A stretch of DNA of 32,000 nt from Cereibacter sphaeroides 2.4.1 (GTDB taxonomy: Bacteria > Pseudomonadota > Alphaproteobacteria > Rhodobacterales > Rhodobacteraceae): positions 750,001 through 782,000 of the forward strand of contig NC_007494.2 of NCBI RefSeq assembly GCF_000012905.2. The letters are read 5' to 3'. The notes beneath the pieces are model-generated. The model was not told the origin of the DNA. It searched no databases and saw nothing but the letters and a program-made list of their open reading frames with translations. Numbering within the stretch: position 1 is the stretch's first letter; every line of letters begins with the position of its first letter. This document shows positions 1 to 24,417 of this stretch, piece after piece. A program made the translations under genes and the position numbers.

Positions 1-1
1 G

Positions 2-226
2 CGCTGCAGTTTAGTATTTGCTGTCCCGCTGAACCGCGATCCAGGAACGCTTGTTGAAATTGGCCTTGCCATTGCGGCTGGCACGCCGGTCGTTACCTAC
101 GATCCGCGGCAAGAGAACAATAATACGATGGTGATCTGCGGCAGCGACGCCTACTCAGATGACTTGGACCAGTGCTTGAACTCGACGTTCGAACTTCTCG
201 CCAAACTGCGGGAGCAAGCGAAATGA
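2..226 (+). CDS. Nucleoside 2-deoxyribosyltransferase-like (NDT/DNPH1 fold) protein; only the C-terminal 74 codons are in the window
   Basis: Frame 2 is open from the window edge to TGA 224-226, and it is missing from the ORF track because it runs off the edge. The translation ...VFAVPLNRDPGTLVEIGLAIAAGTPVVTYDPRQENNNTMVICG... carries the D-x-G-T-x-x-E-x-G-x-A motif with the conserved Glu typical of this fold. Its stop overlaps the next start (ATGA at 223-226). Confidence 0.55.
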   Translation, partial: RCSLVFAVPLNRDPGTLVEIGLAIAAGTPVVTYDPRQENNNTMVICGSDAYSDDLDQCLNSTFELLAKLREQAK

Positions 227-846
227 GCTTCGCGCTATTAATGGCATCTGGCGGGTTGGACTCGACAACAGTTGCATACTGGCTCACCGAAAGGGGGGTA
301 CAATTTATTCCGGTCTTCTTCGACTACGGGCAGCACTGCGTGGAGACCGAGTGGGAAACACTTAAGGAGGTACTGCCAGCATCGGCTGCACATCCAGAAA
401 GAAATGATATCTCCGACCTTTTTAGGGGATCGAAGTCAAGGTTGATAACAGAGGCTGACCTTTGGAATGAAGAGGTGAAGGATGAAGATCTTTACGTGCC
501 TTACCGAACTCTTCTATTCTATTCTGCAGCTGCGGCACGTGCCCAGACACTGGGAGCGTTTGAGGTTTACACCGGCTTTATCAACAGCAACCGCGCTAAG
601 GAGATCGACTGTACGGCCGAGTTCATGAACAAGCTCGACGCGCTTACTGACTCGGTTGGTCCAGTCCGGTTCTTGTCACCGTTTCGCTTCTGGTCCAAGT
701 CAGAAGTCGCAAAGGAATCTATTCGACTGGGAGTTCCAATTGGGCGCACCTTCTCCTGCCAAGCTGCGAGCCTGATGCCTTGTGGCGCTTGCCCTAACTG
801 CGTCGAACGTCTAGCAGCGCTTCGAGAAACAGGGTTACTGGCATGA
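223..846 (+). CDS. QueC-like PP-loop ATPase (7-cyano-7-deazaguanine synthase family)
   Basis: I place the start at ATG 223 (MSFALLMASGGLDSTT...) with GGGAG 9 nt upstream, not at the GTG 172 used by the track. The protein has the SGGLDST PP-loop, FDYGQ and YVPYRTLLF (QueC VPxRN region). A C-terminal Cys cluster SCQAASLMPCGACPNCVER (C-x7-C-x2-C-x2-C) matches the QueC zinc site pattern. Confidence 0.85.
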   Translation: MSFALLMASGGLDSTTVAYWLTERGVQFIPVFFDYGQHCVETEWETLKEVLPASAAHPERNDISDLFRGSKSRLITEADLWNEEVKDEDLYVPYRTLLFYSAAAARAQTLGAFEVYTGFINSNRAKEIDCTAEFMNKLDALTDSVGPVRFLSPFRFWSKSEVAKESIRLGVPIGRTFSCQAASLMPCGACPNCVERLAALRETGLLA

Positions 847-1508
847 GCTCGATGGCTATAGACAACGACGCGGTGGAAATTCTCATTGCTGCACGGCGGG
901 TTGCAAACTTTGCGTGTCTCCAGGGCGTCCCTGCCGATTCGCGCCACCCTCGCGCGTGTTATCAGCACATGGGTGCGATCCTCGTCGACACAACGTTACA
1001 GGCTGGGCTGAATTACGCAAATGTGGTGCGGCCCAGAGTTACGCGTGCACTTGCGCTGTTTCCAGAAGCGACGACGATTGGCGCCCTCATAGAGATTGTT
1101 GAATCTGGCAAGAGCGCAGCGATTTTAAACTGGCAGCATCCGTTAAAGATATCAAGATTCGAGAGGATTGTAAATTTCTTACATCGCAACGATGTTCGAG
1201 ACTCGAAGGAACTTCGAAGAAGGCTTTCGAATAAAGATTTTTGTGCTTTACTTCAAGATATCCACGGAGTGGGGCCAAAAACGGTGGACTACATGGCGTG
1301 CTTGGTTGGCGTTGAGTCTATTGCGGTAGATCGACACATAAGAAGCTTTGCCCAAGAAGTTGGCATACTGGATAAAGACTATTCCTTCCTGAAACATGTG
1401 TTTTGTGCAGCCGCGGATCTACTCGCTATATCGAGACGAGAATTCGATGCATGGGTTTGGCGTCACGAAGTTGAGCGCAAGTCACCACAAATGGCCTTTT
1501 CGTTCTAG
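843..1508 (+). CDS. HhH-GPD superfamily DNA glycosylase-like protein (EndoIII/OGG-like, no Fe-S cluster motif)
   Basis: ATG 843 overlaps the QueC-like stop (ATGA). The helix-hairpin-helix LLQDIHGVGPKTVDYMACLVGVESIAVDRHIRSFA has a Lys in GVGPKT and an Asp 17 residues later. This mirrors the EndoIII-type GVGRKTA...VDTH catalytic pair. There is no C-terminal 4-Cys cluster. Confidence 0.65.
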   Translation: MSSMAIDNDAVEILIAARRVANFACLQGVPADSRHPRACYQHMGAILVDTTLQAGLNYANVVRPRVTRALALFPEATTIGALIEIVESGKSAAILNWQHPLKISRFERIVNFLHRNDVRDSKELRRRLSNKDFCALLQDIHGVGPKTVDYMACLVGVESIAVDRHIRSFAQEVGILDKDYSFLKHVFCAAADLLAISRREFDAWVWRHEVERKSPQMAFSF

Positions 1509-1725
1509 AGCTGGAGCTGACCTGTTTCATTCCGATCTGCTGTTGTTTTTCCTTATCTAGATCAGACGCACGTGAATGTTCGCGGAAGGCAGCGACTAGC
1601 ACCCGATACGAGCTTAAGAATTGGCCGTTTTGCCGACATCCTGACCAAGCTCAGCATTTTGCTCGAAGGTTCGCCCCGATACGTCTTCAAGGAAGGTTCA
1701 GCTTTCGCCCAATAGCGATGGTAGA

Positions 1726-1742
1726 GGAGCGAGCTTCGCTCC
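1726..1742. terminator. Short GC stem-loop in the convergent spacer, a possible terminator for the minus-strand operon
   Basis: GGAGCGA-GCT-TCGCTCC forms a 7-bp stem with a 3-nt loop, 26 nt past the dGTPase-like stop. No U-tract follows. Confidence 0.25.
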
Positions 1743-1767
1743 CCCGCAGATCTTACTTCTTGATCTG

Positions 1768-3189
1768 CTAGATGGGCTTAAACATGCTTTCCGCGACATC
1801 TGACTTGAGCCGAGCCCAGAACTCTACGGCATACCTATCCGTCATTCCTGCGACAAAGTCGCAAATGTGACGCGCCTGCAAATCCTTATCCCCACCGGCC
1901 TCCTGAACCCGCTTGCGCACGTCGTCGGGCATAAGCAGATGTCCGCTCTTCTTTTCCAGCGCCTCGAATATTTCCCCCACCAACTCGGTACCACGGTACT
2001 CGCCGAGCTTAACCCGGTTCGAGTAGATAGTTGACAGGAAAGTATATTGCTTCAGGATTTCCACTTTAATGCGCGTCTTCTTATCTAGCGCAGCTCGTGA
2101 GAGAGCAGGAAACTCTTCGTTTATTTCTAGTTCAACAGCGTTCATGAATTCGTGAACCAGTTCGGACGATAGCTTCATCCTCCTCCCTGCGTCCATGTTC
2201 ACCGCACGAGACGCCTTCATCGCGTTGATAAAACTTGAAAGATCCTTATTCCGTCGTTCGAACGGAAAGTCTTGCTCTCTGCTTTCGTCCACAGCAAAGA
2301 TGTCCCCGAAAAGAGCAACCAAGGTCGCCAAGACTTCTTGTGCGGTGATCTTCTCGCTGCAATCTTCCGCCAGCTGCTCAGTTGCCTTTTCCGCAACCCT
2401 CTTCAGCAAATCATCATCTGTAGCCAGAATTGAGGCAGGCGTTAGGAAACCTGCTTTAAGACTGTCTTCAAGATCGTAAACAGAATAAGCGATGTCGTCT
2501 GCAATATCCATTATTGCACATTCAACGGTCTTAAACTTGACGCCAGCCGGAAGGGCTTTCCCTCCCAAAACTCTTCTTTTTATCTCTGCGACAATCTTAG
2601 CTTCGGAGGCGTAGTACCCTTTTTGCGGACCATCACTACCGAAGCGTTCTTTATCTATCTCGTTGTCGTATTTCAGCACGGCAGCGAGTGTCCGAAAACA
2701 CAAGTTCATCCCGGCGCGCTCGTCGCCATCTACAGGCGCTTTGTACTTCGCCTTCTTTTCCAAGCGGCTTAAGATACGCAGCGTCTGAGCGTTCCCCTCG
2801 AATCCGCCGCGCATCTCCATCTTAGTGTTGAGTGCGCGCTCACCATTGTGGCCGAATGGGGGATGTCCGATGTCGTGGACAAGACCTGCCGCTGCGCAGA
2901 GTCGGCTGTCGATCCGCCGACCTCCCAGTTTTTCCGCATATACATAGTTCAAACGGTCTGCGATGCCTTCGGCGATTTGTGAGACCTCAAGTGAATGCGT
3001 CAGACGGTTTCTAAAGAAGTCGGACTCGTGTCCCGGAAATACCTGCGTTTTACCTTGCAGCCTTCTGAAGCTAGCGCTGTGGATGATCCTACCGAAATCC
3101 CTGACAACGGGCGGTCTCCAAGGGTCAGATGCCGAGTCCTCGCCGTTCTGGCGTAGCCAATCGTCAGATGTGTACATGTTCAACATCAT
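1768..3189 (-). CDS. dGTP triphosphohydrolase-like HD-domain phosphohydrolase (Dgt/SAMHD1-type dNTPase)
   Basis: The ORF has 473 codons. It contains RDFGRIIHSASFRRLQGKTQVF, the HD motifs RNRLTHSLEVSQIA and GLVHDIGHPPFGH, and the C-terminal ICDFVAGMTDRYA, all hallmarks of the dGTPase family. Confidence 0.9.
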   Translation of the reverse strand: MMLNMYTSDDWLRQNGEDSASDPWRPPVVRDFGRIIHSASFRRLQGKTQVFPGHESDFFRNRLTHSLEVSQIAEGIADRLNYVYAEKLGGRRIDSRLCAAAGLVHDIGHPPFGHNGERALNTKMEMRGGFEGNAQTLRILSRLEKKAKYKAPVDGDERAGMNLCFRTLAAVLKYDNEIDKERFGSDGPQKGYYASEAKIVAEIKRRVLGGKALPAGVKFKTVECAIMDIADDIAYSVYDLEDSLKAGFLTPASILATDDDLLKRVAEKATEQLAEDCSEKITAQEVLATLVALFGDIFAVDESREQDFPFERRNKDLSSFINAMKASRAVNMDAGRRMKLSSELVHEFMNAVELEINEEFPALSRAALDKKTRIKVEILKQYTFLSTIYSNRVKLGEYRGTELVGEIFEALEKKSGHLLMPDDVRKRVQEAGGDKDLQARHICDFVAGMTDRYAVEFWARLKSDVAESMFKPI

Positions 3190-3207
3190 TACTGCTACCG
3201 CAAATGC

Positions 3208-3369
3208 TCACGCTCGGGCCGAGCTGTTCAGCGCGCGCTCTTGCTGAAGTGCCGCTTTTCTTTCTTCTTGCTCACGCTTCATTTGCAGGCCCAGCCGTAC
3301 GGCTTCACGAAGGCTTTCCTGCCTCGCTTCTGCAGCTTCGCGAGCTTCTACTATCGCTTGATATGCCAT
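3208..3369 (-). CDS. 53-aa highly charged, predicted all-helical peptide of unknown function
   Basis: I place the start at ATG 3369 (MAYQAIVEAREAAEARQESLREAVRLGLQMKREQEERKAALQQ...), preceded by GAGGAGGA at good spacing. It sits 83 nt after the upstream gene and 18 nt before the dGTPase-like ATG. I recognise no family. Confidence 0.45.
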   Translation of the reverse strand: MAYQAIVEAREAAEARQESLREAVRLGLQMKREQEERKAALQQERALNSSARA

Positions 3370-3452
3370 GCTTGTCCTCCTCTGGCCATATTTCATGATA
3401 AGGAGCGATCCATCGTCCTACTCCCTGCTTTAGAATGCCCCGGCGTCAACTG

Positions 3453-4856
3453 CTAACGAGGACGCACGCGCGCAGGCACCCCAGCCTTTCGCAAAACATC
3501 GGCTAAATGGCTGGTTAGGCCCACCTTGCGATCCAGCATGATACCGGTTTGCGGCTTCAAGTCGCGGGCCAAAGACCTAAGCACCTCCAGCCCTTGAGAG
3601 ACATCGAAATCAAGCCACTCGTCTGCATCACCTGGCACAATGATGTCACCGTCGGACGTACTAGATCCGCGATGAAGTTGGACGATCCATAGCTCTGAGC
3701 CATCAAAGACCCATTCGAACCGACAAGCACCAAGCGCACAAGCGAGCCGGCCGTGTAGATCATTTACCTTTGCTAAGATCTCATCGGGAATTGGCTCGGG
3801 ATCCGCAAGCCCAACCATGAGGCGCTCTCCGGTTCCTTGGATCCCTTCTACAACGAGGCTCCCGCTCGACGTCTCTATAGCCGCGCCCGACCACTGCGCC
3901 GCAACACCCTGCTGCGATAGCACCGAGGAGATTGCGGTACCGTCAGGATCCTCGCGTTGGAGCAAGGCAAAAGGATCTCGCCACCCGCGCGCGGTGGTGA
4001 ACTTCCCGGGCACTTGCTCTCGCGGGCTTGTTCTTATCCACACTTCTGCAAGATCCGTAGATCGGCCAAAGGAGAAGGGCGCGATGCGTCGACCTATCAC
4101 CGTTGTCCTAGGAACTGGAAAGCCTTTAATCTCCGCAACCAGAAGTCCGTACACCTTGTCGCCGATCATTCGGCTAAAATCATTGGGCCACTCGATCTTC
4201 ACCAAGTCCCTTGGTAACGAATCCTCAGATAGTTCCCAGAAGATTACGTTGTCCATCTTCCAGCCTCGTGGTCTCGGATGTAGACTGAATTCAAGACGCC
4301 CATTCTGCCCATGTGAGAAGTCGGCCTCCACTCCATAGACGATTTTGAAAAGCTGTATAGCCATTGAGGTTGGGAGCCGGGCGAACCCTGGCTGCTCCAC
4401 ACCGCGCGGCGTCATGTCAGGGCGAAACTCCACTATGTCGCCGATCACCACGCCAGAAACGCCACCATCCGAAACATCAATCGTTTCGTTCACAATCGTG
4501 AACGCGCCCTCCTTGGCCATGCGCTCAACAGCAGCGACCGCTGCAGCCGCGTTGTCAATGCCGTAGATAAAGTCGCGGCTTTGGCTTTGGTGAGCATTAA
4601 AGCTACGAATGTTCACCGTCCTTTCGGAGCTTCGCTCGAAAAGAGCCTGTATGGCATCAGCAACAGATTCGAAGCGATGATTAGGTTCAATGCCAGAAAT
4701 TCGGCAAAACTGCAGCAAAGGACCTTCGACTGCCGGCGCGAAGCTCACAAACTGCGCCACATTGCAGGTTGCGGCCAAGCGATCCAACGTCTCATCTTTT
4801 CTGAAGACTGCCCCTTCAGGTTGATCAGAACTAGTTTGCCCAGCACCCAACTTCAT
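3453..4856 (-). CDS. PEP-utilising-enzyme-type phosphotransferase-like protein (PPDK_N-type ATP-grasp plus a C-terminal phosphohistidine swivel motif)
   Basis: ATG 4856 follows AAGGA. Residues ~230-400 follow the PPDK_N / PEP synthase / rifampicin phosphotransferase ATP-grasp pattern: GDKVYGLLVAEIKGFPVP, WIRTSPREQVPGKFTT, VLSQQGVAAQWSGAAI, EGIQGTGERLMVGLADPE, RFEWVFDGSELWIVQLH. Residues ~437-465, GIMLDRKVGLTSHLADVLRKAGVPARV, match the swivel-domain GG-x-TSH-x-A-x-x-x-R-x-x-G-x-P motif, with the His at codon 450 (nt 3507-3509). Confidence 0.7.
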   Translation of the reverse strand: MKLGAGQTSSDQPEGAVFRKDETLDRLAATCNVAQFVSFAPAVEGPLLQFCRISGIEPNHRFESVADAIQALFERSSERTVNIRSFNAHQSQSRDFIYGIDNAAAAVAAVERMAKEGAFTIVNETIDVSDGGVSGVVIGDIVEFRPDMTPRGVEQPGFARLPTSMAIQLFKIVYGVEADFSHGQNGRLEFSLHPRPRGWKMDNVIFWELSEDSLPRDLVKIEWPNDFSRMIGDKVYGLLVAEIKGFPVPRTTVIGRRIAPFSFGRSTDLAEVWIRTSPREQVPGKFTTARGWRDPFALLQREDPDGTAISSVLSQQGVAAQWSGAAIETSSGSLVVEGIQGTGERLMVGLADPEPIPDEILAKVNDLHGRLACALGACRFEWVFDGSELWIVQLHRGSSTSDGDIIVPGDADEWLDFDVSQGLEVLRSLARDLKPQTGIMLDRKVGLTSHLADVLRKAGVPARVRPR

Positions 4857-4907
4857 TTTCCTTCGGCTCTACAGCGCTCCGACGCACCATACGTGAGCGA
4901 GGTGTGC

Positions 4908-4922
4908 ATCCTCTCCGAGGAT
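4908..4922. promoter_or_regulatory. Inverted repeat upstream of the phosphotransferase-like gene, a possible operator
   Basis: ATCCTC-TCC-GAGGAT has perfect 6-bp arms and lies 52-66 nt upstream of ATG 4856 in the AT-richer leader. Confidence 0.2.
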
Positions 4923-5279
4923 TTCGCAACTTCCAAATGACCTTAACTCGAACCGGCGTAGTCAGGCCAACATAGACCTTTGAGCAGCCTGCACTTGGGG
5001 GCATCCAGCAGCTTCGCCAGGCACGGCGATCGCTTCCTTGAACATCCACGCGCGCGGCCCGTGAAAAAATTCCCGTGTTTTCTCTTATGGTTGCGGATCT
5101 TTCTCCGGTAGGCGGCATGAGGGACGGACTCGCGCAGCTGCTCATGTTCGCTGCTCAACTACACTAAGAGGAGACGCGCTCGTCACAGTGGCTCTGGCAT
5201 CCGTCCCGTCGTTGTATATGGGTCGTTCATCAGTGCAGGCCGGCTGTGGCCCTCGGTCCCGCAAGACAGGCATAGCAGC

Positions 5280-5858
5280 TTATAGCGGGCTCGGACCCTC
5301 AACGCCTCGGCGCGAGGGCCGTTCTGAACAGAACGACTGCATGTCTGAGCTGCCCGGACGTGCAGCCAAGAACATCCTGACCTCCCTCGCGCTCCGAAGC
5401 CGAATGATGGCCTTATCGCTGGGCGCACCAGCCACCAGCCGCTCGATCTGAGCCCGGCTGGTGATCCTCGTGTTCCAGATCCAGCGGTAGAAGGACCAGT
5501 CGAATTGCTCGAGGCAGCCGTCCGGTAGATCGGGACGCGTGCGCCCTCGATACTGAAGCGAGCGCAGGAACACGCGCCAGAGCCGGACATGGATCGGCAC
5601 ATCCAGCCAGATCAGCGTGTCGCAGCGTGCCAGCCGCTCCGGCCATGTCGCGGAGTGTCCGCCCTCGAAGATCCACTCCTTGCGCGCGTGAACTTCCTGG
5701 CACAGGCGGGTCTTCTCCTCGCGCGACCGCTCGACCCATCCGGTCGACCAGTGGATATGGTCGATGTGAACCACCGGCAGCCCAGTGCGCCTGCCGATCT
5801 CCCGGGCCAAGGTGGATTTGCCCGAGCCGGGCTGTCCGACGATCATGACTCGTTTCAT
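5280..5858 (-). CDS. P-loop kinase-fold protein, FlaR / DNA topology modulation protein-like (adenylate-kinase-related)
   Basis: I place the start at ATG 5858 (MKRVMIVGQPGSGKSTLAREIG...) with AGGAGG upstream. The Walker A motif and the collinear pattern ...WIFEGGHS...LIWLDVP...RTRPDLPDGC...FYRWIWN... resemble FlaR-type proteins as I recall them. The last ~28 codons look like a non-native tail. Confidence 0.75.
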   Translation of the reverse strand: MKRVMIVGQPGSGKSTLAREIGRRTGLPVVHIDHIHWSTGWVERSREEKTRLCQEVHARKEWIFEGGHSATWPERLARCDTLIWLDVPIHVRLWRVFLRSLQYRGRTRPDLPDGCLEQFDWSFYRWIWNTRITSRAQIERLVAGAPSDKAIIRLRSAREVRMFLAARPGSSDMQSFCSERPSRRGVEGPSPL

Positions 5859-6217
5859 GAGGGCCTCCTGCCAGTTCGCGAAAGCCCACCAGCGTAGCAT
5901 CGGAAGCTCCGTGCCTCAACCGCCTGTGCCTTGGCGGCGGCGGTGACCGGAGGAAGTCCCCTGCCCTGCCCACTCAGCATGGTCACTGCGGGGCCGCCTC
6001 GGCGAACTCGGGCAGACCAGGGCATCGTCTCGGCCGAGGGTGCCGGCCGGCGCAACGATTCCCGCTCCATGCGAAATCCATCGCCACGCCGGGCGGAAGG
6101 CCGCGTGCCCCCGCCGAGAGGCGCGGGACGGGACTCGAGCGGCCCGATTAGGGTCGGGATCGGTGATGGTCTACGCCTGCCGGGATCGCGCATGGCGTAG
6201 CTCCGAGCCTTGCAGCT

Positions 6218-6669: not shown

Positions 6670-7044
6670 TCAACGCTCATAGAGGCGGCGCAGCTCCGCC
6701 TCGGTGACTCCGTCAGACTCCATGACCATCCGGATCATGGGATCGTCCAGCATCGCCTGCAGGAAGAACTGATCGAGCGATTGGCCCGACGCTTCGTCGC
6801 GCGCGATCGCCGAGTCGATGTCGGCCAGCCGCACGGTCAGGGACCGGGCGAGGTTGGGCATCTCTGGCGTGGGATGGAGGTGGATCACCACCGACGCCCG
6901 CCATGCCGCCGGGTCCGGCATGCCCGCTGGAGGCCGGATCTCGGTATCGAGCTGGTATCGGCCGGCCGGAAGTTCCGCGTCAAAGCCGGGCAGACGGAAC
7001 GGTCGCAGGAACACCGCGGTGGATCGGACGATGCGGTCGGCCAT
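6670..7044 (-). CDS. Hypothetical 124-aa protein, of a small conserved alphaproteobacterial type
   Basis: I place the start at ATG 7044 (MADRIVRSTAVF...) with AGGAGG upstream; the track's 276-aa extension looks like a high-GC artefact. The C-terminus ...FFLQAMLDDPMIRMVMESDGVTEAELRRLYER resembles small hypothetical proteins I recall from alphaproteobacteria. Confidence 0.55.
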   Translation of the reverse strand: MADRIVRSTAVFLRPFRLPGFDAELPAGRYQLDTEIRPPAGMPDPAAWRASVVIHLHPTPEMPNLARSLTVRLADIDSAIARDEASGQSLDQFFLQAMLDDPMIRMVMESDGVTEAELRRLYER

Positions 7045-7788
7045 GGTGGTCCTCCTGTCCTGGGTTCGTTTGCGGGTCCGAGCCATACCCGACGATGGTT
7101 CGGAGCCGTCGCCCGTGCGCGACCGGGCCTCACCCATCCGGCACGACAGTCGCATGGGCCGTCGCGACCACAGCGCGATCCCGCCGCAGGGCGTCATCGA
7201 CGGTGCGCAGACCAGTACGACGACGCTTGCGCCCGGTCCAGTGCTCGACCGTAATGTAGAACTGGTCCGCGGCCAGCAAACTTCCCTCGGCGGCGGGGCG
7301 CCATTGACCTCGGCGCAAATCTCGCATGTCCCCGACGGGAGGTTGTCGCCGAGGTGGAACGTACTCCGGAAGAAAAGTCCCAGGGGATGGCGCGCGCTTT
7401 CCTGGGATCTCTCCTCATGACTTGCCACGCGGCGCTGTCTGACGAAGAACCGAAGGAGGCGCGAGATCCTGATGCGGCGAATAGTGCTCCGCCTTGGCAC
7501 CTCGTCCTGACGGCCGGCTCTCGATCAGTTCTTGTTCGGGGGGCGCCTCGTTCCCATATGAAAATATCACCGAGGCATCAGAGCCGTCGCCTGCCGTCCG
7601 GGCCACGATCCGTCGGCCGGCGCTGTCCGGGCGACATTCGGCCCTTCCCGTCGTCCGGTTCCGGCACCGCAAAGAAGCCCTGAACCGGGTGCCGCGCAAA
7701 CGGCGACCAAGCGCACGTTCGTATGACGTCCCGAGCGGCCGGAATAGGCGCGAGATGACCGATCCCGCCAGCAGAACAAGGAACAGGA

Positions 7789-7998
7789 ATGCGCTCTCCC
7801 AAGTCTGACCCACCGCGGTCCAGTCACGGCCAGGCCGCACAGCGCGCCGACGCCGCAGCGAAGGCGATCATCGCCGCCGAAACCGACGCGCGGAGGGCGC
7901 AGGTCGCGCGGCTGAAGGCGGCACGGCTCGAACGCGATGCGGCGCTCGCGGACCTGCCCCCGGCGCCAAAGCCGGTCCGCAAATCCGGCCGGAAATGA
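7789..7998 (+). CDS. Hypothetical 69-aa Ala/Arg-rich helical protein
   Basis: The ATG is preceded by AAGGAACAGGA and third positions are GC-rich. The segment ...AETDARRAQVARLKAARLERDAAL... resembles small conserved alphaproteobacterial proteins. A short stem-loop CCGCA-GGTT-TGCGG directly follows the stop. Confidence 0.4.
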   Translation: MRSPKSDPPRSSHGQAAQRADAAAKAIIAAETDARRAQVARLKAARLERDAALADLPPAPKPVRKSGRK

Positions 7999-8277
7999 CC
8001 GCAGGTTTGCGGGAGGGCTTCCGGTTCTGCCCCGGAAAATGAGGACCGGTCCCTCCTCTCGCAGGAGCCGGTCCACCGTCAGGATAACAGGCACCCGCCT
8101 CCGAACCCGTCGATCCTGCTAGAGGCGGCCTTGCAGCGGCATAGGGCACCGCACACCAGATGTTGCAGGGCTTGAGGCAACTCTTGGGCACCCCCCAGCC
8201 CTACGAAGAATCGGCGATGGCGTCTGTGCCGGCGTTTTACAAACGGACCGCAAGCTGTTGATTTTCTTAGGTCGGGC

Positions 8278-9140
8278 TCAGCTGCGCTTTACAGGGTGCA
8301 GCCTGCGTTTGCAGGCACTTGGCCCCGACTCATAATCGTGGGGTCGGGGGTTCAAGTCCCCTCTCGCCACCATCGCCCCCCCCACAATCTGTTGGTCGAT
8401 GCCGAGCAGCCGCTCCATGTTGCCGCGGACCTCGACCAGGACGTCGCCGGTCTCAACCTTGGGATGGACAGTGATCTCGGTGATGATCCGGCGCAGGGCC
8501 TCGACCGAGGTCGCGTCGAACGTGCCGTCGCCCCGCTGCAGCGCGGCCGAAAGATCGGCGATGGCGCGCGTATAGGCAGCCGTCGCCTGCGGATGCAGCT
8601 CCACCACATTGTCCTCGCTCGAGGCGATCTCGAGCTCGCTCCGCGCCATCTCTGCGGCCTGCTTGGCCTGCAGCACCCGGGCGTCGGCTTCCTCGCCCTC
8701 AATCAGGCCACGCGCCATCATGTCCACCAGCCGCATGTAGCGGGCTCGGCTGTCCGCCGCGGCCCGTTCCAGCCGTGCCCGGTCGCGGCGCGCCGTCTCC
8801 GTCAGGCGCCGGCGCTCCTCGGCATAGACCCGGACGAACTCCTTCAGATAGTCCGGGCGGTCGAGTTGCGCCCGAAGGCGAAGGAAGATCGCCTCCTCGA
8901 TCTTCTCGAGCCGATAGCGCGCCTTGTTCTCGCAGCTTCCGCTCTCGTTCGCCGTGCTGCACCGGATCCGGATCGCCTCGCCGCAACGGTCGTGGATGCT
9001 CATACCGCCCCCGCAGCAGGCGCACCGGATCAGGCCTGAGAAAGGACGGGGCGGCGCCTTGGTGATATTGCCCATCCGCACCGCCTCCGCCTGCTGCGCG
9101 TGGCGCCGGACGGCGGCCGCGAAGAGCGGCCGGGGCACGG
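8278..9140 (-). pseudogene. Large serine recombinase, C-terminal part only (zinc ribbon plus coiled coil); the catalytic resolvase domain is missing
   Basis: The segment ...PPRPFSGLIRCACCGGGMSIHDRCGEAIRIRCSTANESGSCENKARYRLEKIEEAIF... is a recombinase zinc beta-ribbon, followed by a long coiled coil. The N-terminal 230 codons of the track ORF (8278-9789) are antisense to the portal gene. The last ~35 codons (...MVARGDLNPRPHDYES...) are the antisense translation of the tRNA-like fragment. Confidence 0.6.
8324..8372 (+). tRNA. tRNA-Met(CAT)-like 3' fragment (anticodon arm to CCA), probably an attachment-site remnant rather than a functional gene
   Basis: The anticodon arm is CCCGA-CTCATAA-TCGTG with one C-T mismatch. 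It is followed by GGGTC, the T arm GGGGG-TTCAAGT-CCCCT, and CTCGCCACCA. No complementary 5' acceptor strand or D arm lies upstream, and the acceptor/discriminator is one nt short of canonical. Confidence 0.45.
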
Positions 9141-9149
9141 GGCGGGCGA

Positions 9150-9972
9150 GCTCGAGCTGATCGACCTCGTGCGCCAGTCCGGCTGCAGCGTGCTCCGCGC
9201 CGGCCGGGACCGGTTCTACGACTTCGAGGACGGCGCGGGCCTCCGCCGCCGCGCGCCTGCCCGCGCCATGATCCATCTGCGCTACATGGCCGAGGACGGC
9301 TGGACGGGGCGCAGCCCGCTCGAGGTCGCGGCCGAGAGCGTGGGCCTCGCGCTCGCAGGCCAGGAGTCGGCGGCCCGCGCGGCCTCGGGCGTCACCGCCC
9401 GTGCCGTGATCCGGCTCCGCGACGATTACGAGGATGACGAGGCGCGCGTCCGCAGCGCCCGCCGGGTGGCGGCCGCGCTCCGCGCGCCGGAGGTCGAGGG
9501 CTTCCCGATCCTCGGCGAGGGCGAGGATGTGAAGACGCTCGACATGAAGGCGGCCGATCAGGAACTCCTCGGCAGCCGCAAGTTCGACCGCGAGCAGATC
9601 GCGGCGATCTACCGGGTGCCGCCGGCGAAGCTCCAGATGATGGAATACGGGGTGAAGGCCAACGGCGAGCAGCAGGCCATCGACTATCTCACCGACTGTC
9701 TCCTGCATTGGGCGAAGCAGGTCGAGGACCAGCTGGCGCTCGGCGTGCTGACCGAGGCCGAGCGCCGGGCGGGCCTCTTCTTCCGCCACGACTTCGGCGC
9801 CCTGCTCCGGCCCACGACGCGCGAGCGGTACGAAGCCCTCGCCAAGGCGGTGGGCGGCCCGATCCTGACCCCGAACGAGGCCCGGCGGATCGACGGCTAC
9901 GATCCCATCGAGGGCGGCGACCGGCTGAACCCGGCGCCGAACATGACCCGCAGCGAGGAGACAGATCCATGA
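9150..9972 (+). pseudogene. Phage portal protein, HK97 family, N-terminally truncated
   Basis: The segment ...IHLRYMAEDGWTGRSPLEVAAESVGLALAGQE...LGSRKFDREQIAAIYRVPPAKLQMM... follows the HK97-type portal pattern. About 130 N-terminal residues and any credible start are missing. The stop overlaps the protease ATG (ATGA at 9969-9972). Confidence 0.6.
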
Positions 9973-10886
9973 CCCGCACGCTCGCCAGCCTCTTCGGCCC
10001 TCTGCAGCCCATGGCGCTGGCCGAGGATCTCGCGGCGCCCCTCCTCGCGATGCCGATCCCAGAGGGGGCGGCGGATCCCGCCGCTGCGGCCCGTGCTCCG
10101 GCGGCCGGCCCGACCGTTCCCGACCGCTTCACCGTCGCGCGCGGCCTCGCGGTGGTGCCGGTGCGCGGGATCCTCACGCCGAACATGGCGCAGTACGAGC
10201 GCTGGTTCGGCTGGGCGACCTATCATGGCCTCGCCGAGACGATGGCGCACCTCGCGGCCAGCGAGGATGCCGCCGCCATCGTGCTCGAGATCGACAGCCC
10301 CGGCGGCCTCGTCTGCGGGATCGAGGCGGCGGCCGAGGCCATCGCGGCGGCCGCCGCCGTGAAGCCGGTCCATGCCCTCGTCTCGCCGCTCGCGGCTTCC
10401 GCCGCCTATTGGCTCGCCTCGCAGGCCTCCGAGATCGTGATGACGCCCGGCGCCGTCGCGGGCTCCATCGGCGTGGCGCTGACCGCCGCAGCCCACGTCC
10501 AGCCCGGCGCGAACGGCGCGCAGATCTTCGAGATGAGCTCCCGCCACGCCCGCGCCAAGCGCCCCGACGCCTCGACCGAGGCCGGCCGCGCCGAGCTCCA
10601 GCGCAGCCTCGACGAGGCCGAGGCCGCCTTCCACGCCGCCGTCTCCGCCGGCCGCGCCATCCCCGCAGCCGAGCTCGCCGCCCGCCTCAGCGTCACCGAC
10701 GATCCGCAGGACGGCGGCGCGACCTTCCGCGCCCCCGAGGCCATCCGCCGCGGCCTCGCCGACCGCATCGAGACCCGCGCCGCCTTCTATGCCCGCCTCG
10801 CCGCCCGCACCGCGCCGAAGCCCCGCAGCCCCAGTCGCGCCTTCGCCGCCCGCGCCGCCGCGGCGGCAGCGCTGGCCCGGAGCTGA
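9969..10886 (+). CDS. Phage head maturation protease, S49 (SppA/ClpP-like) family
   Basis: I place the start at ATG 9969 (MTRTLASLFG...). The segment IVLEIDSPGGLVCGIEAAAEAI...KPVHALVSPLAASAAYWLASQASEIVMTPGAVAGSIGV is the S49 peptidase core. Confidence 0.8.
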   Translation: MTRTLASLFGPLQPMALAEDLAAPLLAMPIPEGAADPAAAARAPAAGPTVPDRFTVARGLAVVPVRGILTPNMAQYERWFGWATYHGLAETMAHLAASEDAAAIVLEIDSPGGLVCGIEAAAEAIAAAAAVKPVHALVSPLAASAAYWLASQASEIVMTPGAVAGSIGVALTAAAHVQPGANGAQIFEMSSRHARAKRPDASTEAGRAELQRSLDEAEAAFHAAVSAGRAIPAAELAARLSVTDDPQDGGATFRAPEAIRRGLADRIETRAAFYARLAARTAPKPRSPSRAFAARAAAAAALARS

Positions 10887-10913
10887 TCGGCACGCGAGCT
10901 GCCGCGTCAGGGT

Positions 10914-11321
10914 TCAGGACAGCTCGACCCCGAAGAGGCTTCTCGTCCATTCGACAAACAGGCCGAAAGGCCGCGCCAGCAGGATCATGAGAATAATGGC
11001 CGACCCGATGGCCGTTCCGGCTTCAGCGAAGCTCGCTCCCGCGATGAGAAGCGTGGCGCCATAGACCGGCGCCTGGAACGACAGGAATGCCAGAATGTCG
11101 GTCAGAAAGGCGCTCCAGCGGTTCCGGGGGGCCGTTCGCCTCACCAGCCAATCGCGCCATCGCGTGTAGGGTCTGCCCGTCAAAACCATGACTGGCACCA
11201 TGAGAAGACGTGTGGCCAGAACCTCGGACGGTGCCATTCCTGCGATGAGCAACTCCGAGAAGGTCGCTACCGCGGTGAAGAAGATGACCGTGGCAACGGT
11301 GTCGATGATGAAGAGGCGCAT
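10914..11321 (-). CDS. alaE: AlaE-like L-alanine exporter (small 4-TM efflux protein) inserted in the head module
   Basis: 135 codons run from ATG 11321 (MRLFIIDTVATVIFF...). The collinear motifs DT..., GM, TRLLMVPV, PY..WRD and LTDILAFLSFQAPVYGATLLIAG match E. coli AlaE/YgaW as I recall it. GC is lower than in the flanking phage genes. The track's 554-aa ORF is an artefactual upstream extension. Confidence 0.7.
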   Translation of the reverse strand: MRLFIIDTVATVIFFTAVATFSELLIAGMAPSEVLATRLLMVPVMVLTGRPYTRWRDWLVRRTAPRNRWSAFLTDILAFLSFQAPVYGATLLIAGASFAEAGTAIGSAIILMILLARPFGLFVEWTRSLFGVELS

Positions 11322-11477
11322 GGGCGGTGCATTATCATGATGCGTCCGCCGGCGCACCTCTGAGCCGAAGACCCCGGCACCTTCGGGCTCCAGCCAATCC
11401 CCTTCACCCCTTCCCATCCCCCGCCTGTGGCGGGGCCGTTCGGCTGCGCGGATGCAGCCCTGCCAAGAGAGGATCCC

Positions 11478-12558
11478 ATGGCACGACAGAACCTCGACGA
11501 CCTGCGCCGCGCCCGGAAGGCCGCGGCCGACACGATGGCCGCGGTGGCCGCCCGCATCGGCGCGCTCGAGGCGGCCGAGGCGCCGGACGCCGCCGCTCTC
11601 GAGACCGAGACTGCGGCCTTTGCCGCTGCCGAAGCCGCCTTTGCCAAAGCCGATGCCGCCGTGACGCGCGCGGCGGCCGTGGAAGCCGCACAGGCCGCCG
11701 CGGCGCAGGGCGATGGCGCGGGCGCCGGGGGCGGAGCGGGTGCTGCCGGCGCCGATGCCGTGCCGGCCGTGGCGTCCGATCCGGCGCATCGCGGGGTGGC
11801 GGCGGGCTTCATGGTCCAGGCGCTCGCGCGGACCAAGGGCGACCGCGACAAGGCGGCCCGCCTCCTCGAGGCCGAGGGCCATGGCGCGATCTCGGCCGCG
11901 CTCTCGGGGGCCAGCGAAGGCGCGGGCGGCGTCACCATCCCGCGCCCCCAGGCGGCCGAGCTGATCGAGATGCTGCGCGCCCGCGTCGTCGTGCGCGCCT
12001 CGGGCGCCCGCACGCTGCCGATGCCCGCGGGCGAGATGCGGCACGCGAAGCAGGTGGGCTCGGCCGTCGCCGCCTATGCCGCCGAGAATGCCGCCATCGC
12101 GCCGAGCCAGCCCAGCTTCGACAAGATCGACCAGAGCTTCAAGAAACTCTTGGGCATGGTGCCCATCGGTAACTCGCTCCTGCGCCACTCGGGCGTGGCG
12201 ATGGCGCAGCTCGTGCGCGACGATCTCCTGAAGGTCATGGCGCTCCGCGAGGATCTCGCGTTCCTGCGCGGCGATGGCAGCGCCGACACGCCGAAGGGGC
12301 TGCGGCACTGGATGCTGCCGGCGAACTGGTCCGCCGCTCCGGTGGCCGCCACGCCGGCGGCGGCTGAGGCGGCGATCCGGCGCACGGTGTCGCTCGTCGA
12401 GGATGCCGATGTGGGCATGGTCTCGCCCGGCTGGATCATGCGGGCCTCGACGAAGAACTGGCTCGCGAGCCTGAAGGACCCGAACGGCAACCCGCTCTTC
12501 CCCTCCATCGGGGCGTCCGCGCAGCTCATGGGCTTCCCGATCCGGACGAGCTCGCAGA
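11478..12558 (+). pseudogene. HK97-family major capsid protein, C-terminally truncated
   Basis: ATG 11478 (MARQNLDDLRR...) opens an Ala-rich coiled delta-domain. The capsid core then runs ...IPRPQAAELIEMLRARVVV...FKKLLGMVPIGNSLL...LREDLAFLRGDGSADTPKGL...QLMGFPIRTSSQ. Family similarity stops at ~12557, and the frame then reads through the holin RBS and start to a stop at 12659. Confidence 0.65.
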
Positions 12559-12595
12559 GACCCGCGCGACGAGCGCACACAACAGGAGCGGCGCG

Positions 12596-12961
12596 ATGCC
12601 GAAAGAGGGACTCATCGACACCATCGCCGCGCTCAGGGGCGGGTCCATCGCCACGCTGATCGCGGCGGCCATGGGACGGCTCCTGTATCACACCAACGAG
12701 GTCCGCGCCCGCCGCCGCGCCTTCTTCGGCCGCGAGTTCCTCTGGGAGATCCCCGCCCTCGTCCTCATGACCTTCGTCGGCGAGGCACTGAGCTCCTCGC
12801 TCAACCTCGACCGCCGGGCGGCGATGGGGCTCGTGGCGATGCTCGCCTACCTCGGCCCGCGGGGCACCAAGGCGATGGCCGAGCGGCTCTGGCGGGGACT
12901 CTGCTGCACAAGTCGACTGATGATCGGCACGCCCCTTTCCCCGGACATACCTATCCTGTGA
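12596..12961 (+). CDS. LydA-like phage holin (holin superfamily III), with its 3' end probably replaced by IS sequence
   Basis: ATG 12596 follows AGGAG at 7-nt spacing. The segment ...GGSIATLIAAAMGRLLY...FLWEIPALVLMTFVGEALSSSLNLDRRAAMGLVAMLAYLGPRGTKAMAERL parallels phage P1 LydA as I recall it. The tail WRGLCCTSRLMIGTPLSPDIPIL looks non-native. Confidence 0.5.
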   Translation: MPKEGLIDTIAALRGGSIATLIAAAMGRLLYHTNEVRARRRAFFGREFLWEIPALVLMTFVGEALSSSLNLDRRAAMGLVAMLAYLGPRGTKAMAERLWRGLCCTSRLMIGTPLSPDIPIL

Positions 12962-13690
12962 CTTCCGTGATGGGTGTCCCGAGCGCGGTGAAGCCGTTCA
13001 GGACGGCGACACGAACCTGGAACTCGGCGACCTGACGGTCGAAGTCCCTGGCGGACAGTCGGTGGCCCGGCAGCTTGAGGCAATGCATCTTCGTCGCTGT
13101 CCGGTTTCGGCGGGGGTAGCCGCTCCATCGTCGCCAGATGGTCCGGCCGACGCGCTTCGATGTGCGCAGGATTTCGTTGCGTGCGATTGCACCGGTGGTG
13201 TCAGGTTTACAGACTTTGGCGTTCTTCCGCGGCGGGATGACGGCGGCCGCGCCGCGGGAGGCGATGGCGTTATGGCACTTGCGGGTGTCGAAGGCGCCGT
13301 CGGCGGGGACGGTGGCGATGTCCTGGTCGGGCGGGATCTGGTCCAGCAGCTCGGGCAGCATCGGCGCGTCGCCGACATCGCTGATGGTGAGCTGGGCGGC
13401 CCGAATTTCCAGTGATTTCTCATCGATTCCGATGTGGATCCTGCGCCAGACCCGCCGCTTCGGGCCGCCATGCTTGCGGGCATTCCACTCGCCTTCCCCC
13501 CTCCACCTTGATACCTGTGCTGTCGACCAGCAGGTGCAACGGACCGTCCGAACCGCGGTAGGGGATGTTGACCTTCAGGGGCTTCTGGCGCCGTGACAGC
13601 GTGCTGAAGTCAGGCGCGGGCCCAAGCCAGGCCGCTCACCTGCAACAGGCTCTCCACGAACCCGGTCGCCTGGCGGGCCTCGCAGAGTCG
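12951..13690 (-). mobile_element. IS5-family (IS903-group-like) transposase remnant: 5'-truncated, frameshifted, catalytic Glu apparently lost
   Basis: The minus-strand translation reads ...QATGFVESLLQVSGLAWARAPDFSTLSRRQKPLKVNIPYRGSDGPLHLLVDSTGIKVEG, then a frameshift, then EGEWNARKHGGPKRRVWRRIHIGIDEKSLEIRAAQ...ADGAFDTRKCH...IPPRKNA...WSGYPRRNRTATKMHCLK...RDFDRQVAEFQVRVAVLNGFTALGTPITEVTG. The frameshift sits in the C-run at 13496-13501. About 100 N-terminal codons are absent. The position of the conserved ...ET.M Glu reads Ala. Confidence 0.75.
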
Positions 13691-13732
13691 GGACCCACAT
13701 CCCCGCCGCCGCCCGTGATCGTCACCCGGCCC

Positions 13733-13760
13733 GGTGAGCCCCGCGGACGCGGGACCCACC
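13733..13760 (-). terminator. GC-rich stem-loop 8 nt downstream of the kdgD stop, a possible operon terminator
   Basis: GGTGAGCCCCGCG-GA-CGCGGGACCCACC pairs 11 of 13 positions. No U-tract follows. Confidence 0.3.
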
Positions 13761-13767
13761 CCGGATT

Positions 13768-16318
<2,551 letters not shown>

Positions 16319-22504: not shown

Positions 22505-22811
22505 GAAGGTCCCCTGTATTGCACGGTCATCAGACAACTGATGAGCTGGCATGTACAGGGCGGAACGACGGGCGGCAACTGCCTCCGCGGAGCGGTCGGC
22601 CCGAGCGACGGGCGCGTTGGGCCGCATGAGGAGCATGTCCTTCGTTGCCGGTCGCGGATCCCGCACTTCGGAACGCGGCGCGCCTCCGAGCCTGTCCGTT
22701 CACGAAGCGCGAAATCGACAGGCGGGCAGCCGGACGCGTGGCCCGAGCGCCCCGCCCCCTCGCCGCGCCTCCGCCGGACGGCAAGGCGGACGGGCAAGGC
22801 CGTCGGAACTA

Positions 22812-23222
22812 ATGCCTAAGGCCGGGTTTCGGGCAAAGGAGGAGCCCCATGGCCGGATCCTGACGATCACTGGCGTCTTCGACAGCAAGGAGGCGGCGGC
22901 GCGTGCCGTCGAGCGGCTCGTCGAGGCGGCCGTATCGCGCGCTTGTCTCCGGCTTGCGTCCGGGCGCCTCGACGCAGAGGGGCCGCGAGAGGAGAGCCAC
23001 AGCCCCGGCGATCCGGTGCTCGACCATGTGCTGCCCGAACCGGAGCAGGCGCACCGTTCCGAAGGGATCTCGCGCGGCGGCACGCTCGTCTGCAACCGCG
23101 ACGTTCCGCGCGAGCTGCACGAGACGGCTGTGGCGCTTCTCGCAGAGGAAGGGGCGTGGACATCGAGAAGCTTGCGCTGGAGTGGCAGCGGCGGGGAGAG
23201 GGGCCGGCGCCCCGGGAGCTGA
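22812..23222 (+). CDS. Small stress-type protein (general stress protein 17M-like / RRGG-motif family); the 3' end is possibly frameshifted
   Basis: The segments ...ILTITGVFDSKEAAARAVERLVEA... and ...PEPEQAHRSEGISRGGTLVCNRDV...AVALLAEEGA resemble a small alphaproteobacterial family as I recall it. The expected C-terminus (VDIEKLALEWQRRGEG...) lies in another frame that runs to 23323. The start codon is uncertain. Confidence 0.45.
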   Translation: MPKAGFRAKEEPHGRILTITGVFDSKEAAARAVERLVEAAVSRACLRLASGRLDAEGPREESHSPGDPVLDHVLPEPEQAHRSEGISRGGTLVCNRDVPRELHETAVALLAEEGAWTSRSLRWSGSGGERGRRPGS

Positions 23223-23443
23223 GGGGCGCGACGCGCGACGCGGCCGGGACTGACCCGCACCGGAACGATCGGAAGGCCCACGGCGCGGGCGCCCCGGTCG
23301 GACCGGAGGGCGGGGGGGCCTGAGCGAACGGGCGGCCCGGCCTCCGGCGGCGAGGGCCAGAGCCGCCGCGTCCGGTCCTGGTTCGGCACCGGAGCCTGTT
23401 CGTCGGGCGCAGACAGGGACATTGTTCCGGCCCCGGCCGTGCG

Positions 23444-24160
23444 TCAGCGACCTGTATAGATGCCGACCGCCTGTGTGCGAGATGTCACATCGAGTTTTTT
23501 CAGGATCTCGCTGACGTGATAGGTCACGTTGCGCCGCGACAACCCCAGGATGAGGGCGATTTCGCTGTTGCTCTTGCCATGCGCGATCCAGTCGAGGATC
23601 TCGATCTGCCGCGGGCTCAGTTTCGCGAGGCCGGCGAGAGCGGGCGACACCGCGGCGGCGGCGGGCAAGAGCGAGCCCGCGCGCACCAGAACGGCCAGCG
23701 CCACGATCCGCCCGGCCTCGGCGATCTCCTCCGGATAATCCTCCCGCTGGGCAGACAACATGGTGATGGCGCCGATCCGCCCCCGACGGTCCGGGAGAGG
23801 AACGATCAGCCCCGCCCGAGCCTCGAAACTGTGCGGACACGGGAAATACCTGTCTTTTCTCAATGACTTCCAGCTCCCTGACCGCCAGATCAGGGGCTTG
23901 ATGCCGGTCACGGCATAATCGAGCAGCGGATCCCGGATCCGGGCCGACGCCGGATCGGAGGCGCCGTCCTGCTCGCAGGGCCAGGTGGTGAGGTGAGGCG
24001 CCGTCACCGCCTCCAGTGCATGAGGTCTTTGGTAGGCGAGCGAATAAGTCTGGAACCCAAGGCCCACGACCGCGTCTTTCAAGGCCTGAGACAGTTCGTT
24101 CCGGCTCTCGGCGCGAGATATGGACCCCACCGCATTCGCGGTAACTGCAAGAAGACTCAT
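23444..24160 (-). CDS. LuxR-family regulator with an autoinducer-binding-like N-domain; no luxI gene in the window (LuxR solo)
   Basis: The ORF has 238 codons. The C-terminal HTH is LSPRQIEILDWIAHGKSNSEIALILGLSRRNVTYHVSEILKKLDVTSRTQAV. The N-domain has IRDPLLDYA (Asp-Pro) and PLIW (Trp), reminiscent of AHL-binding residues. Confidence 0.8.
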   Translation of the reverse strand: MSLLAVTANAVGSISRAESRNELSQALKDAVVGLGFQTYSLAYQRPHALEAVTAPHLTTWPCEQDGASDPASARIRDPLLDYAVTGIKPLIWRSGSWKSLRKDRYFPCPHSFEARAGLIVPLPDRRGRIGAITMLSAQREDYPEEIAEAGRIVALAVLVRAGSLLPAAAAVSPALAGLAKLSPRQIEILDWIAHGKSNSEIALILGLSRRNVTYHVSEILKKLDVTSRTQAVGIYTGR

Positions 24161-24219
24161 GGATCCATTCCAACGGGTAGCACGCTCTATCCGATGGCTT
24201 TGGCCTAGTCCGCATGGGT

Positions 24220-24241: not shown

Positions 24242-24417
24242 AAGCAGTTCTCAATTTGTTGCGATGGGCAGCTTTACGCGCATCCGCAGGGCGAATTCTC
24301 TGAACCACCCCGTCCTGCCGATGCCTGGGAAGATGTTCCGCCCCGGCGACCCTCTCCTCCCGCACACGATGGCGCCCGCCGCCGTGGCCAGACGAACCGG
24401 GTGGCGGGGACAAAGCT

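Follow-up and report, generated by a model that had tools for sequence, protein, structure and literature searches.

The island and its two gene sets

The stretch of Cereibacter sphaeroides 2.4.1 analyzed here (hereinafter the window: 32,000 nucleotides of NC_007494.2, positions 750,001 to 782,000) opens within a low-GC island, which carries a cassette centered on a QueC-family enzyme and, facing it, a dGTPase operon with an uncharacterized partner protein, P467. The GC fraction is 0.47–0.58 from position 1 to about 5000, as compared to 0.61–0.79 across the remaining window. A preliminary description of this DNA had correctly recognized a low-GC island, but only the right 5.1 kb (positions 1–5160) was in its view: on a fuller contig (L003) the low-GC block spans 8.1 kb (approximately 6800–14,900), with high GC on either side and about 3 kb extending past the left edge of the window. 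The island is flanked by prophage lysis genes (holin, M15 peptidase and Dam methylase) and a large serine recombinase. As the interval between lysis genes and the serine recombinase is the usual site for cargo, we read the island as prophage cargo. Its low-GC part within the window is occupied by six reading frames in two convergent sets, within each of which the genes overlap or stand close together. The two sets meet, as had been noted earlier from the sequence, at a spacer of about 260 nt, which the open reading frame (ORF) coordinates place at 1509–1767 (259 nt). A search of this spacer for a terminator or hairpin turned up a palindrome of 10 nt but nothing matching a terminator consensus. 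Two further pieces lie to the left of the window, namely the kinase part of a fusion protein and the fourth gene of the cassette, which codes for a 125-residue protein (p125).

The plus-strand cassette has the order p125, PfkB::NDT (a PfkB-family kinase fused to a nucleoside 2-deoxyribosyltransferase, NDT), QueC-like and OGG-like. These four genes overlap or nearly abut and therefore form a single operon. The translation of positions 2–226 (+) gives the last 74 codons of the 442-residue PfkB::NDT protein, the full gene of which is found at L003:8676-10004. The full protein matches the Pfam Nuc_deoxyrib_tr model (PF05014) with an E-value of 6.6e-15 (55.7 bits against a cut-off of 28.8) and PfkB with 0.0043, while a profile of the family recovers NDT (4e-13) and ribokinase (4.5e-7) structures from the PDB. 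The DPGTLVEIG motif, with the presumed catalytic glutamate, is invariant in the NDT domains of both cassette lineages discussed below, namely type A, to which that of the window belongs, and type B. The next gene (223–846, +) codes for a predicted ATP-dependent ligase of the QueC family (207 residues), whose start overlaps the PfkB::NDT stop by 4 nt (ATGA). It is recognized by the Pfam QueC model (2.1e-32) and the PADLOC model for CBASS-type QueC (9.3e-25), and its best PDB match is Cap9 of type IV CBASS (9nto_B, 1.8e-13). The SGGLDS ATP loop and the zinc-binding cysteine motif CQx6CxxCxxC are conserved across 61 homologues.

The last gene of the cassette (843–1508, +), which again overlaps the preceding stop by 4 nt, codes for a predicted HhH-GPD glycosylase of 221 residues resembling OGG and Cap11 (PADLOC OGG, 2.2e-6). 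Its matches are weak: the profile recovers MagIII (2.8e-4), EndoIII (4.5e-3) and Ogg2 (7e-3) from the PDB, and the protein scores 13.6 bits against a Pfam Ogg-HhH threshold of 27, which its type-B homologues surpass with up to 42.6 bits. An invariant GVGPKTVDY...AVDRH stretch aligns with GVGRKTAN...AVDTH of EndoIII, and K146 and D163, the Lys/Asp pair of the bifunctional glycosylase/lyases, are invariant in sets of 14 and 57 homologues. The protein encoded by the first gene, p125, begins with MGSSGSG (pattern MGS[ST]GSG). At least 54 of its 57 homologues open with MG[ST]xGSG, after which come F(S/T)DY and a tail rich in Gly and Ser, and the type-B homologues open with MSGGGG. The p125 proteins of types A and B have in common two invariant cysteines and a small β-rich domain, and a profile of the family matched nothing in the PDB or Pfam.

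The minus-strand operon codes for P467, a 53-residue peptide and the dGTPase. The last of these (1768–3189, −; 473 residues) is a dGTP triphosphohydrolase of the anti-phage dGTPase family, scoring 405.8 bits against the NCBIfam model NF041026 (cut-off 400) and 2.4e-120 with the PADLOC dGTPase model; it contains the Pfam HD (1.3e-13) and HD_assoc (1.2e-19) domains. Between it and P467 lies an intact ORF (3208–3369, −) for a helical, charged 53-residue peptide that is annotated by gene callers and RefSeq and is conserved in six genera, across which its N-terminal 35 residues follow the pattern MAYxAxxEARxAAEAxQExVREAVRLGLQxKRE.

P467 (3453–4856, −; 467 residues) belongs to a family with over 1800 homologue clusters. 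Searches of Pfam, NCBIfam, PADLOC and the PDB with the single sequence or a profile returned nothing meaningful, and only its predicted structure was informative. The AlphaFold2 model (pLDDT 83) points to an ATP-grasp domain followed by a swivelling phospho-histidine domain, as in PPDK: the top Foldseek matches are PPDK (1kbl, aligned over the full length), rifampin phosphotransferase (5hv1) and ATP-grasp ligases, and all those listed among the 46 PDB matches at E ≤ 1e-3 are PPDK, rifampin phosphotransferase or ATP-grasp enzymes. The motif GLTSHxADVxRKAGVP, 17 residues from the C-terminus, is invariant; GLTSHLADVLRKAGVP is conserved without exception at T448, S449 and H450, and the loop matches neither the Pfam PEP-utilizers model nor any PDB sequence. 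We take this motif to resemble the phospho-histidine loop consensus of PPDK-type enzymes (G-x-T-S-H-x-A...R..G.P). P467 lacks a third, acceptor-binding domain. Thus, the folds assigned in the preliminary description (QueC-like, HhH-GPD, NDT and dGTPase) all stand, and the swivelling-histidine assignment is a reasonable one in light of the P467 model, albeit for a protein lacking the acceptor domain.

Upstream of the minus-strand operon, the right-hand GC transition of the island falls at 4857–5160, where GC climbs from 0.54 to 0.61–0.67. A P-loop gene of the AAA_18 family immediately beyond it (5280–5900, −; 206 residues) was weighed as a possible member of the island and discounted: its GC resembles that of the host, and the homologous islands in other genera do not have it. 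Inside the low-GC block, about 2.1–2.9 kb to the left of the first base of the window, a gene coding for 250 residues (L003:6908-7660, −) has as its sole match a weak one to HEPN/AbiU2 (E 0.008) and could be a further defense gene of the island. The large serine recombinase (8278–9789, −; 503 residues, with a Zn_ribbon_recom domain) marks the end of the prophage. It is shorter in strains L001-L003 (241–307 residues as called), and between it and the DctP gene the window has about 9 kb more sequence than L003. Farther along, three long minus-strand ORFs at 22,809–24,215 (468 residues), 24,274–30,024 (1916 residues) and 30,187–31,944 (585 residues) have no Pfam match at E ≤ 1e-5 and may be either real genes or chance ORFs in DNA of 70% GC.

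Gene neighborhoods of the two modules

To trace the linkage from the side of P467, genomes were scanned at one per species and the neighboring ORFs of the 80 closest loci were screened by tblastn and clustering. Beyond the window, at least 20 loci from about ten genera bring the seven gene families side by side, in four gene orders. In six loci from Phyllobacterium, Mesorhizobium and Cohaesibacter (L010-L015) all seven genes recur in the convergent layout of the window, with 50–81% protein identity. In eleven others, from Ensifer, Devosia, Mesorhizobium, Ancylobacter, Rhizobium and Xanthobacter, the P467–small ORF–dGTPase set instead stands beside a type-B cassette, whose QueC and PfkB::NDT proteins are only 24–29% identical to those of type A and which includes one more gene, with a restriction endonuclease annotation. 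The order in these is mostly divergent (L017, L019-L029 and L201 show this order), and the same layout is also seen in Brucella/Ochrobactrum. Finally, two rhizobial plasmids have all the genes in a single direction with gaps of 55–210 nt, the cassette coming first in one (L170, as also in L023) and the dGTPase module in the other (L172). Overall, a cassette lies within 6.5 kb in 17 of the 20 P467 loci with a co-directional dGTPase, while all of the other 60 lack one (Fisher p ~1e-14, without correction for phylogeny); one of the three cassette-less P467–dGTPase loci lacks the relevant flank. The P467–dGTPase subclade is thus a separable module with a strong and recurrent preference for the neighborhood of the QueC cassette.

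Conflict genes also surround some of the homologous islands: the flanks at L172:15035-17332 and L201:11188-12830 code for a multiubiquitin–ThiF–DUF6527 set, a HipA toxin with helix–turn–helix partners and coupling proteins of type IV secretion systems, which is consistent with defense islands on conjugative elements.

The linkage looks different from the side of the cassette. A PfkB::NDT profile recovered 80 metagenomic loci, 44 of which extend at least 1.5 kb past the OGG-like gene. The order p125–PfkB::NDT–QueC–OGG is invariant, with overlapping genes, in all metagenomic and viral loci that are long enough, while the flanks differ from locus to locus and no additional conserved family adjoins the cassette in the 80 metagenomic loci. 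P467 is found beside it in 0 of the 44 metagenomic loci with sufficient flank and 0 of 23 viral contigs from IMG/VR; among plasmids, 45 carry the cassette, 14 carry P467 and 2 carry both. Hence, the four-gene cassette is an autonomous unit, and the notion that the two operons constitute one obligate unit does not survive these counts. The check put forward in the preliminary description, whether the genes travel together or separately, has a mixed outcome under which its idea is neither refuted nor fully upheld: the operons do occur independently, the cassette being alone in most loci, yet co-localization is clearly enriched as seen from the P467 side. A dGTPase homologue is present near the cassette in 4 of the 44 metagenomic loci; in three of these (L092, L100 and L133) it belongs to a different clade (~451 residues, 32–35% identical to that of the window), is encoded on the same strand directly after a type-A cassette and has no P467 with it; here the cassette has recruited a dGTPase independently.

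Type-B PfkB::NDT proteins, and presumably whole cassettes, are also encoded by haloarchaeal plasmids from Halorubrum (H29), Haloarcula (H36) and Halorientalis (H38); the cassette therefore crosses the boundary between bacteria and archaea.

Most P467 relatives among the 80 closest loci have unrelated partners. In about 21 loci, these are a YfbR-like HD protein, a DUF7002 protein and a fusion of a kinase to an adenylosuccinate-synthetase-like domain, with the genes running YfbR-like HD (~192 residues), P467, DUF7002 (~230 residues) and AAA_18::adenylosuccinate-synthetase-like (~535 residues) in L043-L049, L052-L056, L058, L061, L066, L068, L075, L084 and L088. In about 20 loci P467 occurs with a large AAA+ ATPase, and in yet others with unknown proteins of 845 and 249 residues. 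In the AAA+ and 845/249-residue groups, a DUF4406 domain either forms the N-terminal part of the P467 protein or, as a stand-alone homologue, is encoded just before it. Such fusion or adjacency is seen in about 30 loci. The AAA+ partner, of about 790 residues with an IetA/TRIP13-like ATPase domain, is followed by DUF4406::P467 or by DUF4406 and P467 in L030-L041, L046, L054, L063, L079, L083 and L171 (a Burkholderia gladioli plasmid), and constitutes a candidate system. We take DUF4406 to be a member of the deoxyribosyltransferase-like clan; a DUF4406 profile matched nothing in the PDB. Its fusion or adjacency to P467 ties the His-swivel enzyme to a protein with the NDT fold, for which the window offers only PfkB::NDT, encoded in the facing operon. 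A PADLOC scan of the other partner proteins of P467 matched no known system. Literature searches on DUF7002, on DUF4406, on QueC with PfkB and on dGTPase with ATP-grasp likewise did not yield a description of these systems beyond that of Libby et al. 2026. Together, the dGTPase, DUF4406, YfbR-like HD and PurA-like partners suggest a wider class of immune systems acting on the nucleotide pool, and in P467 itself a large, highly conserved family without a family model is brought to light.

A conjugation-based reading and its rivals

What the analysis establishes are the folds, the motifs, and the gene order with its conservation. On these, the island is most aptly seen as a form of QueC-family conjugation immunity to which a dGTPase module with a previously undescribed His-swivel partner is coupled, the mechanism being read from homology and gene context. 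Under this proposal, the island is accessory cargo of a C. sphaeroides prophage comprising two nucleotide-centered anti-phage modules, separable yet specifically coupled in this lineage, which would act through the steps given below; we see the chances for and against it as evenly balanced.

Conjugation of a nucleobase to a protein (deazaguanylation) by QueC-family enzymes has been described only in 2025–26. In type IV CBASS, Cap9 ligates 7-carboxy-7-deazaguanine (CDG) to Gly2 of the CD-NTase CdnD, which has the N-terminus MGGSGGS, and the ancillary module of Cap9, Cap10 and Cap11 conjugates NDG to the same residue (bioRxiv 10.1101/2025.04.06.647259). Cap11, an OGG homologue found in about a third of the type IV CBASS operons, has been proposed to reverse a later transfer; the authors, who could not identify a target, note that a ribose might be taken up at N9, which is free in the tethered base (bioRxiv 10.1101/2025.04.06.647259). 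Similarly, in QatABCD, QatC requires the MGTS tail of QatB (PMC13279940). By analogy to Cap9/CdnD and QatC/QatB, we posit that the QueC-like ligase of the island might use ATP to attach a CDG-type base to the Gly2 amine of p125. Such conjugation is favored over the supply of a free base because the glycine-tailed p125 resembles the substrates of Cap9 and QatC, with their MGGS and MGTS tails. The NDT domain, standing in the place of Cap10, might then bind the tethered base and put a deoxyribose on its free N9, with the fused PfkB domain phosphorylating the sugar: a deoxyribosyltransferase and a sugar/nucleoside kinase are the pair expected if a tethered base were to become a nucleoside and then a nucleotide. 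The OGG/Cap11-like glycosylase would reverse or remove the N-glycosidic linkage. With only four genes, and occurring widely across bacteria and prophages as well as on plasmids, those of haloarchaea included, the cassette makes this tethered-base idea directly testable.

As for the facing operon, the dGTPase is predicted to lower the competing dGTP and to yield deoxyguanosine, the natural donor for an NDT. P467 may add phosphate to a substrate of nucleoside type that a partner with the NDT fold holds, or might otherwise control the dGTPase as CloB does in Clover. The preliminary description had the His-swivel enzyme rephosphorylate the product of the pathway. The recurrent fusion and adjacency of its relatives to the NDT-fold DUF4406 fits an action on the product of an NDT-fold enzyme, but the cassette has its own PfkB kinase, and P467 is not needed simply for rephosphorylation. 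Taken to its furthest extent, the proposal would have all seven genes build a protein-tethered deoxynucleotide, with the base on Gly2, the sugar added by NDT from the deoxyguanosine that the dGTPase sets free, phosphorylation by PfkB and P467 to a polymerase substrate, a protein adduct in replicating phage DNA and removal by the OGG-like enzyme from host DNA. We hold this extension to be very improbable; if true, it would answer what becomes of the free N9 on deazaguanylated proteins.

Several observations weigh against the conjugation proposal or parts of it. The base-binding tyrosine of the YxDC motif is not conserved, the QueC-like protein of the window having EIDC, so that it could ligate an acid other than CDG. 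The type-A cassette comes with no CD-NTase, TGT or recognizable effector. The Foldseek scores of P467 are modest (E ~1e-4, TM 0.2–0.33), and its phospho-histidine domain is not detected by sequence models in Pfam or in sequence searches of the PDB. The Pfam scores by which DUF4406 is assigned are marginal, and the hhalign comparison of the DUF4406-like family to the cassette NDT is not significant (E 0.046), although the aligned stretch is the Glu-containing active-site motif. The cassette mostly lacks the second module, and P467–dGTPase pairs sometimes lack the cassette (as in L016 and L021); therefore, the coupling is facultative, and some of it could stem from shared ancestry inside one P467 clade.

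The last of these points bears on the alternative that two independent defense systems merely lie side by side, with the cassette acting alone and P467, the 53-residue peptide and the dGTPase forming a regulated dGTP-depletion system in which P467 would play a CloB-like role. P467 is indeed missing beside the cassette in every one of the 44 metagenomic loci and 23 viral contigs and in 43 of the 45 plasmids, P467 and the dGTPase are free of the cassette in the two loci just named, and the operons of the window are convergent and not co-transcribed. Moreover, dGTPases can defend singly, and Clover offers precedence for an accessory enzyme (PMC12265719). Yet the adjacency is kept through four rearrangements, including two co-directional arrays, and across two cassette lineages that are only about 25% identical. 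It is seen in 0 of the 60 loci of the other P467 classes, and an unrelated dGTPase clade was separately recruited by the cassette. We regard full independence as unlikely.

The chain of free metabolites envisaged in the preliminary description, wherein deoxyguanosine from the dGTPase has its base swapped by the NDT for a free 7-deazaguanine made by the QueC-like enzyme and is rephosphorylated, becoming either a dNTP analogue that acts against viruses or a mark on DNA policed by the glycosylase, draws on the fact that every required activity is plausibly encoded by linked genes, and the annotated restriction endonuclease of type B would suit the discrimination of marked from unmarked DNA. Nonetheless, the QueC-like protein falls below the cut-off for true QueC (91 versus 150 bits) and is closest to Cap9, no queD, queE, folE, DpdA or TGT gene lies nearby and the operon opens with p125, which makes it an unlikely supplier of a free 7-deazaguanine; the chain also leaves the universally conserved glycine-tailed protein unexplained, and the cassette mostly comes without dGTPase or P467. 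The chain as a whole is in our view improbable. Even less can be said for housekeeping purine or nucleoside salvage, which has been suggested for the PfkB-NDT/QueC pair (Libby et al. 2026, PMC13329287) and with which enzymes acting throughout on nucleosides and nucleotides would be compatible. It sits poorly with the prophage, plasmid and ICE-like (integrative and conjugative element) locations with variable flanks, the patchy distribution, the GC of the island being foreign to its host, the linkage both to a dGTPase of the curated anti-phage family and to a protein like OGG/Cap11, and the conserved glycine-tailed protein, and we consider it extremely improbable.

Comparison with known systems

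Membership in type IV CBASS, QatABCD or Clover was rejected for the island, as the defining genes were absent or their models failed. The likeness to type IV CBASS extends to the QueC enzyme closest to Cap9, the OGG-like partner, an MG(S/G) glycine-tailed protein and carriage on mobile elements. However, a TGT-like Cap10 is absent both from the loci and from the 80 metagenomic neighborhoods, its place being taken by PfkB::NDT, and the glycine tail is borne not by a CD-NTase but by p125, a 125-residue protein of unknown fold, with no cyclic-nucleotide effector; within 10 kb on either side there is no Pfam match to a CD-NTase in L001-L009. With QatABCD (PMC13279940, PMC13376578, PMC13639016) the island shares the combination of a QueC-family enzyme and a small protein of unknown fold. 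The N-terminal tail of p125 resembles the unstructured and essential N-terminal glycine motif of QatB. In contrast to QatC, the QueC-like protein of the window scores 14.6 bits against 280 with NF041925 and lacks the QatC extension domains, and the loci have no gene for the KAP ATPase QatA or the TatD nuclease QatD. Nor is it a canonical QueC (preQ0 synthase), given its scores of 91.4 versus 150.3 bits with TIGR00364 and 31.8 versus 378 with PRK11106, and none of queD, queE, folE or DpdA/TGT is found near the locus. DNA modification with 7-deazaguanines of the Dpd type was likewise rejected, as the loci have no DpdA or preQ0-synthesis genes.

The facing operon recalls the anti-phage dGTPases (Tal et al., bioRxiv 10.1101/2021.04.26.441389), of which single-gene versions defend alone, and Clover (CloA/CloB), where a defense dGTPase has a second, nucleotide-handling enzyme as accessory (PMC12265719). 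In the island, too, an HD-domain dGTPase that passes the NCBI model is encoded with an accessory nucleotide-handling enzyme, but this is the ATP-grasp/His-swivel P467 along with the 53-residue peptide rather than CloB, the nucleotidyltransferase that makes p3diT, and there is the added linkage of the operon to a QueC cassette. P467 itself shares with PPDK (1kbl) and rifampin phosphotransferase (5hv1) a predicted ATP-grasp domain followed by a small domain, in which its T-S-H motif resembles the phospho-histidine loop, but differs from them in having neither an acceptor-binding domain nor a Pfam match, and its relatives are often fused to a DUF4406/NDT-like domain.

Literature searches recovered no publication describing the combined system, the closest being that of Libby et al. 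2026 (PMC13329287). They report that QueC proteins of their Cluster 4 adjoin PfkB-NDT (PF00294-PF05014) in about 89% of neighborhoods and suggest purine salvage, and neither the glycine-tailed protein nor P467, the OGG-like gene or the linkage to a dGTPase is mentioned. The window has the same PF00294-PF05014 fusion (442 residues) next to its QueC gene, and the type-B QueC displays the exact motif CHx5CxxCxGCxK, but the type-A QueC of the window has the Cap9-like spacing CQx6CxxCxxCxE and shares no more than about 25% identity with that of type B. On our analysis, the salvage function suggested for the PfkB-NDT/QueC pair would be better revised to a probable role in conjugation-based immunity.

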